Source: Escherichia coli (GTDB lineage: Bacteria; Pseudomonadota; Gammaproteobacteria; Enterobacterales; Enterobacteriaceae). From it: DNA of 64,000 nucleotides. The stretch is from assembly GCF_965641715.1 (NCBI RefSeq), contig NZ_OZ282453.1; one strand, 5' to 3'. Of the stretch, positions 18,001 through 24,000 are shown piece after piece. The position numbers are program-made. Position 1 is the stretch's first letter; every line of letters starts with the position of its first letter.

Positions 18001-21000
18001 GCGATGTGTTCCCGATTATTGCTGACCGTCTGACTCAGAAGCAGCTTTTCGATAAGCTCCACCTGCCGACCGCACCGTGGCAGTTACTTGCCGATCGCAG
18101 CGAGTGGCCTGCGGTGTTTGATCGTTTAGGTGAGCTGGCGATTGTTAAGCGTCGCACTGGTGGCTATGACGGACGCGGTCAATGGCGTTTACGTGCCGAT
18201 GAAACCGAACAGTTACCGGCTGAATGCTACGGCGAATGTATAGTCGAGCAGGGCATAAACTTCTCTGGTGAAGTGTCGCTGGTTGGCGCGCGCGGCTTTG
18301 ATGGCAGCACCGTGTTTTATCCGCTGACGCATAACCTGCATCAGGACGGTATTTTGCGCACCAGCGTCGCTTTCCCGCAGGCCAATGCACAGCAGCAAGC
18401 GCAAGCCGAAGAGATGCTTTCGGCGATTATGCAGGAGCTGGGCTATGTGGGCGTGATGGCGATGGAGTGTTTTGTCACCCCGCAAGGTCTGCTGATCAAC
18501 GAACTGGCTCCGCGTGTGCATAACAGCGGTCACTGGACACAAAACGGTGCCAGCATCAGCCAGTTTGAGCTACATCTGCGGGCGATTACCGATCTGCCGT
18601 TACCGCAACCAGTGGTGAATAATCCGTCGGTGATGATCAATCTGATTGGTAGCGATGTGAATTATGACTGGCTGAAACTGCCGCTGGTGCATCTGCACTG
18701 GTACGACAAAGAAGTCCGTCCGGGCCGTAAAGTGGGGCATCTGAATTTGACCGACAGCGACACATCGCGTCTGACCGCGACGCTGGAAGCCTTAATCCCG
18801 CTACTGCCGCCGGAGTATGCCAGCGGCGTGATGTGGGCACAGAGTAAGTTCAGTTAACCTGGTGCTCATTTGATTGCCGGATGCGGCGTGAACGCCTTAT
18901 CCGGCTTACCGCTCCGGTACCCATTGTAGGCCTGATAAGACGCGTCAAGCGTCGCATCAGGCATGGTGCACCGATTGCCGGATGCTCTCATCACTACAGC
19001 GAAATACAGGTCCCCGCTTCGCCCGCCAGCGTCTCTTCAATTCGCGATAACGCCCCAATCCACGCGGGTTTACCACGGCTTCTGACATAACCACTCACCG
19101 CCGTTACCTTCGGCCCCATCGAACCATCGGCTTTGGCAAATGGCGCTAACTCATCCGGTGTGGCATGGCGAATGGCACGTTGCTGCGGCGTTCCCCAGTT
19201 TTCATATACCGCATCAGCATCGGTGAGGATCACCAGTCCATCGGCGTTAATTTGCTCGGCGAGCAACGCAGCGGCGAGATCTTTATCAATCACTGCTTCA
19301 CTCCCTGCTCCGTCATCCGTCACAGGCACACCGCCGCCGCCACTGCAAATCACCACATGCCCCTCTTTGAGCAACAACTCGATGGCTTCGCTGTCGAGAA
19401 TTTTACGCGGTTGCGGAGACGCCACCACCCGGCGCAAATATTTACCATCACGTTTCATCTGCCAGCCGTAAGCCGCTTCCAGTGCCTCTTGTTCTTCTGG
19501 CTGATAAACCGGACCAATAAATTTCTCTGGCTGCAAAAACGCCGGATCATCAGGCGAAACCTCAATGCGCGTCAGCACCGTCGTGACAGGCGGCATCTGC
19601 GGCTGTGCGCTCAAACTCTGCGCCAGCATATAGCCAATCATCCCCTGACTTTCTGCCACCAGCACATCCAGCGGATACGGTTCTACCTCTTTCCACGCCA
19701 GATTCTGCAATGCCAGCAGCCCCACCTGCGGCCCGTTGCCGTGAACAATCGCCAACCGATAAGAACGGGCCAGGCGTGCCAGCGCGGGTACAGCACTGGC
19801 GATATTGCGATATTGATTTTCTGCCGTCAGCGACTCACCGCGCTGGAGTAAGGCGTTGCCCCCAAGAGCCACAACCAGTGTTTTCATGGTTTTCCTTGTA
19901 ATAATTGTTGGCCAAGCCAGAACCCCAGCAGCGTATCTGCCCCTGACGTATGCCCCAGCGCCAGCAGCGAATCAATCGCAACAGCGGTACGTTTCGGGCA
20001 ACTCAGAGCATGAACAAAGTGCAGGAGTGGCGAGGCGAAATATCCTTGCGCGGCATAACGTAAATAACTGACGCTCACCGCTGTGGTAACGAGTTGCAGA
20101 TTGTCGGAACAGGCAAAAAACGGACGACCGGAGCGCGCATCTAAAGCGCCATAATACCAGGCCGCCAGCAGCATTCCGCTCAGCGTGTCATCATGACTCG
20201 GCGTTAATCCGGGGCCTTTACCCAGCCAGTGCCGCCAGTCGGTCTTAACGCCATTGAGCGCGGCCTGAAAACAGTGACGAAACTGGCGTAATTCAGCAGG
20301 CAGCGGATCGCTTGCCGCCAACACCAGTGGCCCGAAAAGCCCGGTTTCCTCCGCGCGTTGCATCCATGCAGCTGCAAGCGGTTGAGGATGCGCAGGCGGC
20401 GTAATACGCAGCAAACAATAACGCTGTGGCTGTTTAACCGTGAAACGCCCGAGGCGAATCCCTTGAGCCACAACCTGTGGTCGTTCATTGCCGCATAATC
20501 CACCGCATAACGCATCGAATTGCGCACGGCGAAGCACCCATCCTCCGGGGCCGAAACCACTACCCTGACGATGCAGCGTTAACAGTTCGCCGCTTTCCGT
20601 CATCAGGTTAATCGCCCGCCGCCACACTCCCGCTAACCGCCAGGACTGGCGATAATTCGGTGCGCTACTACTGGCAAGCAGAGGATGGATGATCGTCATT
20701 GCGCGTTCCTCAACCAATACCCATGCTTTCAGCCAGTGCTTCCAGCGCCTGTTCAAAACACGCCAGCGGTGCCCGCACGGTGCCTGCGCCAATCTGCCCG
20801 ATCCCCGCCTCTTTATGGGCGATACCGGTATTGATGAGTGGCGTAATGCCGGTTTCTACCACGCGACGAATATCCAGCCCCAGGCACGCGCCCTGGAAAT
20901 CCCAGCTTGGGATCTGCAACTGCATATTGCGTTCAAGGTAAATTTCCGCCATCTCTTCAGATACCGCCCTGGCCGCTTCCATGCCACCCGCACCGACAAA

Positions 21001-24000
21001 GCGCGTTACGCCAGGCGCTGCGATCATTGCCGCACCTCCGATACCAAAGGTTTCGGTAATCGCGCTATCGCCCATATCCGGGTTCGCCTGCTCCTGCGAG
21101 AAGCCGGTGAAAAACAGACCTTGCGGAGTGTTTACAGGCGCAGTAAACCAGCGTTCGCCCAGCCCGCTTACCCGAATCCCGAACATATTGCCGTTGCGGG
21201 TCATTGCCGTGACGATGCTGCCTGCGCGGATCATCGCGCCAGCATCCATCGCCGCCTTGCAGTAAGCCATCGCGAGGTTGAGGAAGAACTGATCGGTCAC
21301 GCTGAGGAAATCCATCACTTCCGCGATGTGCTGTTTATCATGATCGAGGCGAGCAATTTGTGGGGCCAGCGCACGCATTAACAGTGCTGAGGAAGCAATA
21401 TTGCGTTGATGGAACTCATCGCCCATCGTAATGCCCTGCGCCATCATCGCGGTAAGATCGATACCGCGCTCCATGCGCCCCAGCGCCGCGCTTAATACTG
21501 GCATTAACACATCGCGCATCCAGCGATGGCGAGTCAGGACATCTTCGCCGTAAGCGCCAAAACGCATCACTTTGCCGATACCTTCGTTGAGGTTGCAGTA
21601 CGCCCGGTTGCCGTCGGTCACATTCTCGACCACCAGCATCGGCATACTGGCAGAAGTAATGCCGCCCATTGGCCCGACGGCATTCACATGGTGACAAGGA
21701 ATGAAGTTCACTTCCCCCTGCTCCAGTATTGCCAGCGCCTGCGCTTCATCTTTCGCCCAACCTTCCAACAGACATGCGCCCACGCACGCCCCTTTCATGG
21801 GTCCGGTCATCTCCTGCCAGCGCATTGGCGGCCCGGCGTGAAGCAGTGTTTTGCCCTGGTTTAGTTCGCTGATAAGTGAAGAAGCCGGTTGCACATCCAG
21901 CCAGTGTGGACGAGCGCGACGAATTTGTTCGATAACCGCAGCATTGGCTTGCGCCACTGATGTAAACATGGGAACCCCTTATTGCAAACGTTCTAATAAA
22001 CGAGCCAGTTTTTTATTGCCGCCGGCGACTGGCGACCATTGGTAATGCACAACCGGTTTGCTGGCGCTTTGTAGCTCCAGCGCAAAACTGCGTAATCCGA
22101 TGTTAATCACGGCGACGTTTTCCAGTAATGACGGTGTGTGTTGCTGTGCGGCAGGCGAGAGCGGATGAATTAACGCTGCCGCCAGCAAGGTGGCTTCCGG
22201 CAGCGAACTCACTACCGCGATCCCCGCATCTTCCAGCGTGGCGATTTGCTGCGAGCGGCATTGCGGGTCACGTTCAGTGCCTGTCACCGTGGCAATGGCA
22301 TACAGTGGTTGATTGTCTGAACGCGCAGCACAGGCTTTTTGCCAGGCGCTTACCAGCGAGGCGGCAGGATCGGCGGTCGCACCGAAGCCAATCACGACAT
22401 CAAGCAGCAGCACACGCACTTGCGGTTTAGCGCCGAGATCGGTAATTAACTGGTTGCGTAAGGTTGGGTCGATCATCGGATGGGGACGCCCGACGGTGTA
22501 GAAATCATCGCCGAGGTCAATAATCTGGTGGCCATCGGCGTCCAGCATCATGCCGTGATGATGGGCATCATCGGCTTCCACGCCAAGGTGTCCGGCAAGT
22601 AATCCCGCCGCTTCGGCAGCCAGCGTACCGCCGGTATACAAACCGCAAATAAATCCGCTGCTGGCAGGCGTTATCGCGTTACGTCGCGCCGTAACGCGTG
22701 AAAGCAGGCAAGCCAGGCGTGCGGCCTCATCCAGCGAGGAGGCAAACCAGACATTCTCGTCGCGGGCCACCGCCGGGGTATAACCTAAAAACAGCGCCAC
22801 CGTCGGTTTGCCGGTTGCTTTCATGGCATTAACAATTTTCAGACGCACCGCTTCGGCAGGTGGTTTTGAAACAAATGCCAGCACTTCGCTTTTCTCGTCT
22901 GCACTGAGCATTTCCAGCGCCGTCAGCGCACTGATGCCGCCCACTTCACGGCTGAGGTCGCGGCCGCCAAGGCCAATCGCGTGAGTAATTCCCTCCCCTG
23001 CCAGCGCAATCTGCGAGCACAGCTCCTGAATCCCGGTACCGGAAGCGCCAATGACGCCAATGTTGCCTTCCGGCATCACGTTAGCAAAAGCCAGCGGCGT
23101 GCCGGCAATCATCGACGTACCGCAGTCCGGCCCCATCACCAGCAAGCCTTTTTCCCGCGCGCGGGTTTTAAGTTGGATTTCATCTTCCAGCGTGACGTTA
23201 TCGGAGAACATCATCACGTTGAGGTTGCGATCCAGCGCCTGATTCGCCAGCTCCGCCGCATACTCGCCAGCCACTGAAATCAGCGCCAGATTGGCATCGG
23301 GTAATTTCTGACAGGCACTGTCCCAGCGACGCACCTGCGTCAACGCCTGGCTGCTGCCTGACCCCTGCGCCAGTTGTTTTAGCGCCTCTTCAAGCTGCTG
23401 CATAATCGCCTGCGCGATCCCCGCATCCGCCGCTTCGCTACGAATTGCCACGCAAATATCGTTCGGCGTGGCGTTATTAAAATCGTCATGCCAGAAACCT
23501 GTGGTATCTAATAACGCTTTATTGGCGGGCGTACCCATCATTACGGAAACATCATCAACATTTTCTGATTCGCTGAGTTTTCGTGAAATAATCATTAAAC
23601 TGACCGAATCCTGAAAACACCCTTTTTTAATAAAGGCGTGGATCATAACAACTCCTTAAAAATTGCACCCATGGCAATTGCACGAGCAGTGTTAATGTGG
23701 CGATTACGGTATCGATGACAACGGGTAAATAAGGTGATGAATATCACACAGGGATTATTAACAAAAGAATTCAAATAACCGCCATGCTATTACGTGTTAT
23801 TTTTTAATAAGCGTGGTTGTTTTAAAAACCAGGTTAAAAGCGAGCGGATTATCAAATAAATTCTAACTATATTTTTTTGCCTGTCTGGATCACATAATCC
23901 AGATATTTTCCCTGTATGTTAATTGCAGTCATGCTTCACACCGTCGTTAAAAAGGAAGACAGATGAAAATCAGTCGGGAAACACTCCACCAGCTAATTGA

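Follow-up and report, generated by a model that had tools for sequence, protein, structure and literature searches.

[quoted passage not shown] The identity and intactness of the genes, their synteny and the frequencies of the alleles were established directly in this study; the activities, co-transcription and regulation are those described in the K-12 papers, and near-identity to K-12 suggests that the window genes behave in the same way.

Anatomy and identity of the operon

The positions of the operon genes and of the flanking features are listed in Table 1. The four genes lie in the order F-G-H-K on a single strand within the allantoin cluster and are tightly coupled. Counted from stop to start, spacers of 9 nt and 10 nt separate fdrA from ylbE and ylbE from ylbF, respectively, whereas ylbF and ybcF overlap by 4 nt (ATGA), where the allK ATG overlaps the stop codon of allH. 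Because allD is on the plus strand, the operon is divergent from it. The original prediction had described this arrangement, including the overlap and the divergent allD, and its coordinates proved exact. A Shine-Dalgarno-like motif is found 5' of all four starts, and at the allH ATG it is GAGGA, 7 nt upstream. The length of allH is 816 bp both in RefSeq and in the published recombinant gene. A mechanical ORF list also allows a longer allH ORF of 302 aa, from a TTG at 20792.

Table 1. Features of the allFGHK operon and its flanks in the window
Feature	Position	Strand	Description
allF (fdrA)	21979..23646	-	555 aa, ATG start; oxamic transcarbamylase subunit
allG (ylbE)	20710..21969	-	419 aa, ATG start; oxamic transcarbamylase subunit, former DUF1116
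allH (ylbF)	19884..20699	-	271 aa, ATG start; oxamic transcarbamylase subunit, former DUF2877
allK (ybcF)	18994..19887	-	297 aa, ATG start; catabolic carbamate kinase
allD	23963..25012	+	ureidoglycolate dehydrogenase; divergent neighbour, oxalurate supplier
G5 homopolymer, ylbE nt 252-256	21714..21718	-	location of the historical 'frameshift' of K-12; G5 in the window
allD-allF divergent intergenic control region	23647..23962		316 nt, GC 0.37, AT-rich
ybcF-purK spacer	18858..18993		REP/BIME palindromic units

Each of the four proteins scores beyond the curated cut-off of its family. AllF matches NCBIfam NF004760 (FdrA) over residues 1-555 of 555 with 1045.7 bits (cut-off 433), and it carries the Pfam domains PF00549 and PF02629, which are CoA-ligase and CoA-binding domains of succinyl-CoA-synthetase-alpha-like type. 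AllG matches Pfam PF06545 (AllG) with 326.7 bits (cut-off 27) and has a homologue of known structure (PDB 3clq, E = 5.5e-111), and AllH matches Pfam PF11392 (AllH) with 101.7 bits (cut-off 25). The NCBIfam scan returned no model for YlbE or YlbF, but the Pfam models do match. AllK matches the NCBIfam equivalog NF006926 with 619.5 bits (cut-off 416) and TIGR00746 (arcC) with 426.4 bits (cut-off 358), and its matches to solved carbamate kinases reach E = 1.4e-89. Chance ORFs are ruled out because these full-length family matches far exceed the curated cut-offs.

We compared the region with the K-12 MG1655 allFGHK genes (b0518, b4572, b0520 and b0521). Gene content, order, strand relations, gene lengths and the 9/10/-4 nt junctions are the same, with divergent allD at one end and purK at the other, and the mnmH-fimZ interval of the window is collinear with that of K-12. 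The operon is 98.6% identical to that of K-12 at the nucleotide level without indels; the scripted nucleotide comparison used the DHB4 locus, and MG1655 ylbE was compared by direct alignment. Over the 4,969 nt that run from the spacer through the stop codon of ybcF, the alignments with K-12 and with O55:H7 both contain zero indels. None of the four genes has an internal stop, and all have the K-12 lengths. The proteins are 98.7-99.6% identical to those of K-12, with 12 amino-acid substitutions over the four: FdrA is identical at 548 of 555 residues, YlbF at 270 of 271 (A126V) and YbcF at 295 of 297, and YlbE is treated below. None of the differences between the window and K-12 within the operon is a defect.

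The rest of the allantoin cluster is also intact. The genes allS, allA, allR, gcl, hyi, glxR, allW, allB, ybbY, glxK, allE, allC and allD are full length, gap-free and stop-free, and full length was found for 14/14 allantoin-cluster genes outside the operon. AllD aligns with K-12 over 349/349 aa in tblastn, with 98.9% identity and no stops. No compensating defect was found in the four genes, the 4,969-nt alignment or the 14 cluster genes.

The ylbE reading frame in the window and in K-12

The original prediction had described ylbE as a continuous 419-aa ORF, and the window ORF indeed contains no stops. It had also contrasted this ORF with a frameshifted ylbE in K-12 MG1655. Alignment of the two genes shows that MG1655 ylbE is intact as well: b4572 in NC_000913.3 is a 1,260-nt, 419-aa CDS (YP_009029994.1), and the window YlbE is identical to it at 417 of 419 residues, with E38Q and F68L as the differences. 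Since the current K-12 ylbE is also intact, the contrast with MG1655 falls.

The frameshift does have a source in the sequence records, but it is absent from the current MG1655 sequence. PMC4404585 and PMC4759930 describe U00096.2, the earlier MG1655 sequence, as one base short at about ylbE nt 253, the former placing the inserted base at 253, and PMC5210515 dates its replacement to 2013. The W3110 record (NC_007779.1) flags ylbE as 'frameshifted' over a 1,259-nt span with a G4 allele. In an alignment of four sequences (the window, MG1655 NC_000913.3, W3110 and O55:H7), the G run at ylbE nt 252-256 is G5 in all except W3110, which has G4. Removal of one G from the G5 run in silico leads to a stop after 86 aa. 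The W3110/U00096.2 'pseudogene' thus has the same locus and flanks as the window, but it carries G4 and a stop after 86 codons, whereas the window ylbE carries G5 and is not of the K-12-type pseudogene allele.

We then counted the alleles across complete E. coli genomes. ylbE is found in 5,420 of 5,426 genomes. Its span was taken from 60 matches sampled evenly, of which the 59 full-length ones are all exactly 1,260 nt long. Counted as exact matches, the G5 65-mer is present in 3,814 of 5,417 complete genomes, and the G4 64-mer in 4 of 5,417, namely W3110 and three assemblies that resemble it. The exact YlbE protein of the window occurs on 261 public E. coli contigs. An uninterrupted ylbE is therefore ordinary, because it is shared by the MG1655 reference and by almost every other E. 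coli genome; it is the normal state of E. coli, the current K-12 MG1655 reference included. The 'K-12 frameshift' comes down to a single base and is limited to the superseded MG1655 version, the W3110 record and the three look-alike assemblies.

These results bear on the view that the strain is notable for keeping a ylbE lost in K-12 MG1655, and that the oxamate branch is complete only in such strains. The older MG1655 version, which was one base short and showed a stop codon in ylbE, speaks for this view, as does the W3110 RefSeq record, which is still marked 'frameshifted' with its span of 1,259 nt. However, the current MG1655 record is intact, the rare G4 allele is confined to K-12 records, allantoin is converted to oxamate in MG1655 itself in an allG-dependent manner, and allFGH from MG1655 gave active enzyme. 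We consider this view extremely improbable, and an intact wild-type operon of the common E. coli type is the preferred reading.

Control region, flanks and natural variation

The allD-allF spacer is identical to that of K-12 at 306 of 316 positions, with 10 substitutions and no indels. In K-12, AllS was bound at -203 to -144 and ArcA-P at -142 to -83 upstream of allF in EMSA (PMC12535856). Mapped from the allF ATG at 23646, the AllS fragment corresponds to window positions 23790-23849 (54/60 identical to K-12) and the ArcA-P fragment to 23729-23788 (57/60 identical). The allS gene itself is intact (38105-39028). A promoter scan returned only weak consensus matches, in numbers not exceeding the expectation from shuffled sequence. 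On the other side of the operon, a terminator scan found no canonical intrinsic terminator after ybcF. The ybcF-purK spacer aligns to K-12 with the same REP units, minus one 60-nt unit 3' of ybcF, and this REP/BIME spacer is probably the 3' end of the operon transcript.

The substitutions are unevenly distributed, which could favour an operon that has intact ORFs and is functionally altered in this lineage through the AllS/ArcA promoter or through FdrA and YlbE substitutions. Nine of the 10 spacer differences fall inside the AllS and ArcA EMSA fragments, a 120-bp stretch from -203 to -83, and the one at -183 adjoins position -181, the predicted centre of the AllS motif. In addition, all seven FdrA differences cluster within residues 326-443, YlbE carries E38Q and F68L, and in FdrA the D296Y substitution by itself is known to alter flux. 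However, D296Y was sought in the window FdrA and is absent, D296 being unchanged. Moreover, 9 of the 10 spacer differences and 6 of the 7 FdrA differences are also present in O55:H7 USDA5905, so the window variants represent a common natural haplotype and not a lesion, and the exact operon proteins are each found on between 35 and 378 public contigs of E. coli. Functional alteration in the lineage is thus exceedingly unlikely.

The O55:H7/O157:H7 alleles (for example USDA5905 and TR01) are the closest complete-genome relatives of the operon stretch, with 99.3% identity over 5 kb and 99.7% in ylbE, and they have the window's control-region haplotype and its block of FdrA variants at residues 326-443. 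Compared to USDA5905, the window shows 29 nucleotide differences in 4,969 nt, and the protein differences are E38Q/F68L in YlbE, A126V in YlbF, A19S/R105L in YbcF and M326T in FdrA. Among the complete genomes in the collection, none has an operon stretch identical to that of the window. As no complete genome exceeds 99.3% identity, a Shigella-like decaying genome was considered; it was rejected, since the genes from fimZ through mnmH are all intact and public records list the identical proteins under E. coli.

It is highly unlikely, though slightly less so than the two alternatives above, that the G5 run in ylbE is slippage-prone or that the O55/O157-type promoter haplotype alters induction of the oxamate branch relative to K-12. 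If true, either would amount to a modest difference in regulation between strains, within a known pathway. Slippage in the G5 run could now and then silence the oxamate branch, of which the W3110 record would be an example.

Function of the operon and its significance

The oxamate branch of anaerobic allantoin catabolism, which ends in carbamate kinase, has been demonstrated experimentally (PMC9843812, PMC11326118 and PMC12535856). The biochemistry, co-transcription and regulation of the operon were worked out in K-12 MG1655 from about 2021 to 2025. Purified AllFGH cloned from MG1655 has OXTCase activity, and allG and allH deletion mutants of MG1655 lose oxamate formation. The K-12 operon is co-transcribed, as observed by RT-PCR, the kinetics of YbcF carbamate kinase have been measured, and transcription depends on AllS and ArcA, with binding observed in EMSA.

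By analogy with K-12, the four window genes would be transcribed as one mRNA starting from the allD-allF spacer, with AllS as the activator for the allantoin signal and ArcA-P as that for anaerobiosis. AllD would oxidise ureidoglycolate to oxalurate, the AllF-AllG-AllH oxamic transcarbamylase would split oxalurate by phosphorolysis into oxamate and carbamoyl phosphate, and AllK would convert carbamoyl phosphate and ADP to ATP, NH3 and CO2. The expected gain under anaerobiosis is additional nitrogen, together with one ATP for each allantoin. The complete anaerobic allantoin branch ending in carbamate kinase, as originally predicted, agrees with the gene identities, the architecture and the K-12 biochemistry.

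This scheme shares its logic, catabolic carbamoyl transfer to carbamoyl phosphate and then ATP via carbamate kinase, with the classical transcarbamylases (ATCase PyrBI, OTCase ArgF/ArgI and YgeW) and the arcC-type kinase of the arginine deiminase pathway. AllK is itself a genuine member of the ArcC kinase family. Unlike the classical transcarbamylases, oxamic transcarbamylase requires three different subunits (AllF, AllG and AllH), and the Pfam and NCBIfam scans matched none of the three to a transcarbamylase family.

The operon is a core feature of E. coli, and the significance of its presence in this strain is small. The useful outcome is the correction of the K-12 'ylbE pseudogene' contrast: the pseudogene belongs to the superseded U00096.2 and the W3110 record, and it is therefore unfit as a contrast when other strains are scanned.

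Organization, families, and spread of the operon

The ORF listing of the window shows four ORFs in succession on the minus strand (18994-23646), fdrA (allF), ylbE (allG), ylbF (allH), and ybcF (allK), with allD as their divergent neighbour. The fdrA/ylbE junction is 9 nt long (TAAGGGGTTCCCATG), the ylbE/ylbF junction is 10 nt long (TGAGGAACGCGCAATG), and ylbF and ybcF overlap by 4 nt (ATGA). A Shine-Dalgarno-like motif lies 5' of all four starts, and the spacer between allD and the operon is 316 nt long with 37% GC. These coordinates, the junctions, and the divergent allD match to the base the four-gene operon delimited in the original prediction; the operon is real and its limits are correct. 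The mechanical ORF listing prolongs the ylbF frame, which is open for 93 nt 5' of the ATG and overlaps ylbE, to a TTG at 20792, giving a 302-aa form that is annotated in some GenBank records, such as UTI89. The RefSeq annotation and the recombinant AllH of the literature both begin at the ATG, which gives 271 aa and is preceded by a good Shine-Dalgarno sequence.

Features of the window
Feature	Position	Strand	Description
Lambdoid prophage genes	1-4300, 5569-5645
ybcF-purK spacer	18858-18993		REP/BIME units
ybcF	18994-19887	-	ORF, 297 aa
ylbF	19884-20699	-	ORF, 271 aa counted from ATG
ylbF, prolonged frame	19884-20792	-	302 aa, from TTG
ylbE	20710-21969	-	ORF, 419 aa
G5 run	21714-21718		ylbE nt 252-256
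fdrA	21979-23646	-	ORF, 555 aa
EMSA fragment -142/-83	23729-23788		projected from K-12
EMSA fragment -203/-144	23790-23849		projected from K-12
allD	23963-25012	+	divergent neighbour of operon
Rfam match	27072-27138
Rfam match	27164-27206
Rfam match	40256-40344
Rfam match	40846-41070
Region past mnmH	40200-64000		K-12 synteny lost

In NCBIfam, FdrA aligns over its full length with the FdrA subfamily, scoring 1045.7 bits (cut-off 433), and YbcF scores 619.5 bits with the equivalog for carbamate kinase (cut-off 416). Pfam assigns YlbE to the family 'Oxamate carbamoyltransferase subunit AllG' with 326.7 bits, and YlbF to the family 'subunit AllH' of the same enzyme with 101.7 bits. A search of 5,426 complete E. 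coli genomes detects the 5-kb operon stretch in 5,425, with a coverage of at least 80% in 5,407, and the genes are consistently labelled fdrA, ylbE, ylbF, and ybcF. The top matches among these complete genomes are O55:H7 and O157:H7 (99.3%). All four exact protein sequences are already public, on 35 to 378 E. coli contigs each. The 90%-identity cluster of the window FdrA also includes 419-aa YlbE sequences, and that of YlbF includes one YlbE, probably a clustering artefact of fused or read-through gene calls.

The ylbE reading frame in K-12 and across E. coli

The original prediction contrasted the uninterrupted ylbE with a frameshifted ylbE in K-12 MG1655. The current MG1655 record (NC_000913.3) contradicts this: ylbE (b4572, YP_009029994.1) is an ordinary CDS (548357-549616; 1,260 nt, 419 aa), and protein alignment to the window YlbE shows only two residue differences, E38Q and F68L, with zero gaps, so that MG1655 ylbE is intact as well. 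K-12 DHB4 YlbE gives the same result. The cloning of a 1,260-bp allG from MG1655 genomic DNA as a source of recombinant allFGH for enzyme work (PMC11326118) is independent evidence that MG1655 ylbE is functional.

The frameshift was nevertheless real in the superseded reference and persists in the W3110 record. Two resequencing studies of MG1655 derivatives found, against the then-current reference, a silent change at ylbE nt 114 as well as an inserted base at nt 253 'that removed a stop codon', and each study calls this known variation among MG1655 stocks (PMC4404585; PMC4759930). That MG1655 sequence, U00096.2, was superseded by U00096.3 in 2013 because it corresponds precisely to no isolate, according to EcoCyc (PMC5210515). 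The frameshift site is a run of five G (G5), which alignment shows in the window, MG1655, and O55:H7, and deleting one G in silico produces a stop after 86 codons. W3110 has four (G4), and its RefSeq record NC_007779.1 (extracted locus, 2582-3840) carries a 1,259-nt ylbE flagged 'frameshifted'. The G4 run there could reflect an old error in the sequence or a genuine mutation in W3110.

Alleles were counted as perfect matches of a G4 64-mer and a G5 65-mer in the complete-genome collection. The G4 64-mer matches only four genomes, W3110, CIT, LIM, and CAR, and the last three resemble the old MG1655 reference in coordinates and lengths. The G5 65-mer matches 3,814 genomes, and the remaining genomes match with point differences. 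In an evenly spread sample (n=60), the ylbE span is exactly 1,260 nt in 59/59 full-length matches; the 60th is AR_0085, which has a natural internal fdrA-ylbE deletion. The counts and the uniform spans show that an uninterrupted ylbE is the norm for E. coli, and the sole claim lending the operon interest rests on a superseded annotation. In AR_0085 (NZ_CP029741.1; extracted locus, 2774-4439), truncated fdrA and the last (3') third of ylbE are fused by the deletion; E. coli genomes in which allFG is truly disrupted, as here, are very few.

Differences from K-12 in and around the operon

Transcription of the K-12 operon needs AllS and ArcA, whose bound fragments span -203/-144 and -142/-83 relative to the allF ATG (PMC12535856). 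The allD-allF spacer differs from K-12 by ten substitutions, nine of them inside these two fragments (-195, -183, -169, -150 to -148, -139, -135, and -107), and FdrA differs by seven substitutions, all within residues 326-443. O55:H7 USDA5905 has 9/10 of the spacer and 6/7 of the FdrA substitutions, so the shared ones represent a common natural haplotype. The FdrA change D296Y, which alters flux (PMC8550087), is absent from the window FdrA, which retains D296. In the ybcF-purK spacer, the REP/BIME palindromic units number one 60-nt unit fewer than in K-12. Judged from sequence, none of these spacer, FdrA, and REP/BIME differences is a defect. REP/BIME copy number downstream of ybcF varies among E. 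coli genomes, as seen in two-piece matches and in differing match spans.

Elsewhere in the window, lambdoid prophage genes (intD integrase, yfdQ, yfdR, and a ymfK-like repressor) adjoin tRNA-Arg(tct) argU, the site of the DLP12 remnant in K-12, and are 99.9% identical to prophages of several STEC genomes. Past mnmH, where K-12 has ylbG/rhsD, the window encodes a siiEA/BapA-like giant adhesin, type I secretion genes, a YadA-like protein, and ybbP, and only 925/5,426 genomes match this region at a coverage of at least 80%. Rfam matches, counted at the gathering threshold, include the STnc480 sRNA and ES036 in the allE-glxK interval, and an AgrB antisense RNA, two naRNA4 copies, and a second ES036 directly past mnmH. 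A REP origin is probable for the naRNA4 and ES036 matches.

Function of the operon

In K-12 MG1655, mutants deleted for allF, allG, or allH no longer convert allantoin to oxamate, and purified AllF-AllG-AllH, an enzyme without sequence similarity to classical transcarbamylases, interconverts oxamate plus carbamoyl phosphate and oxalurate plus Pi (PMC11326118). YbcF, when purified, acts as a catabolic carbamate kinase whose Km for carbamoyl phosphate is 0.47 mM (PMC9843812). The family matches and this literature bear out the predicted function, an anaerobic allantoin branch ending in carbamate kinase. The window operon would work like that of K-12, because its proteins are 98.7-99.6% identical to those of K-12, its control region is identical at 306/316 positions with zero indels, and in the allantoin cluster allS, allR, and all genes for enzymes and transporters are full length, with zero stops or gaps. 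The operon is an already known, characterised core operon of E. coli in its normal state.
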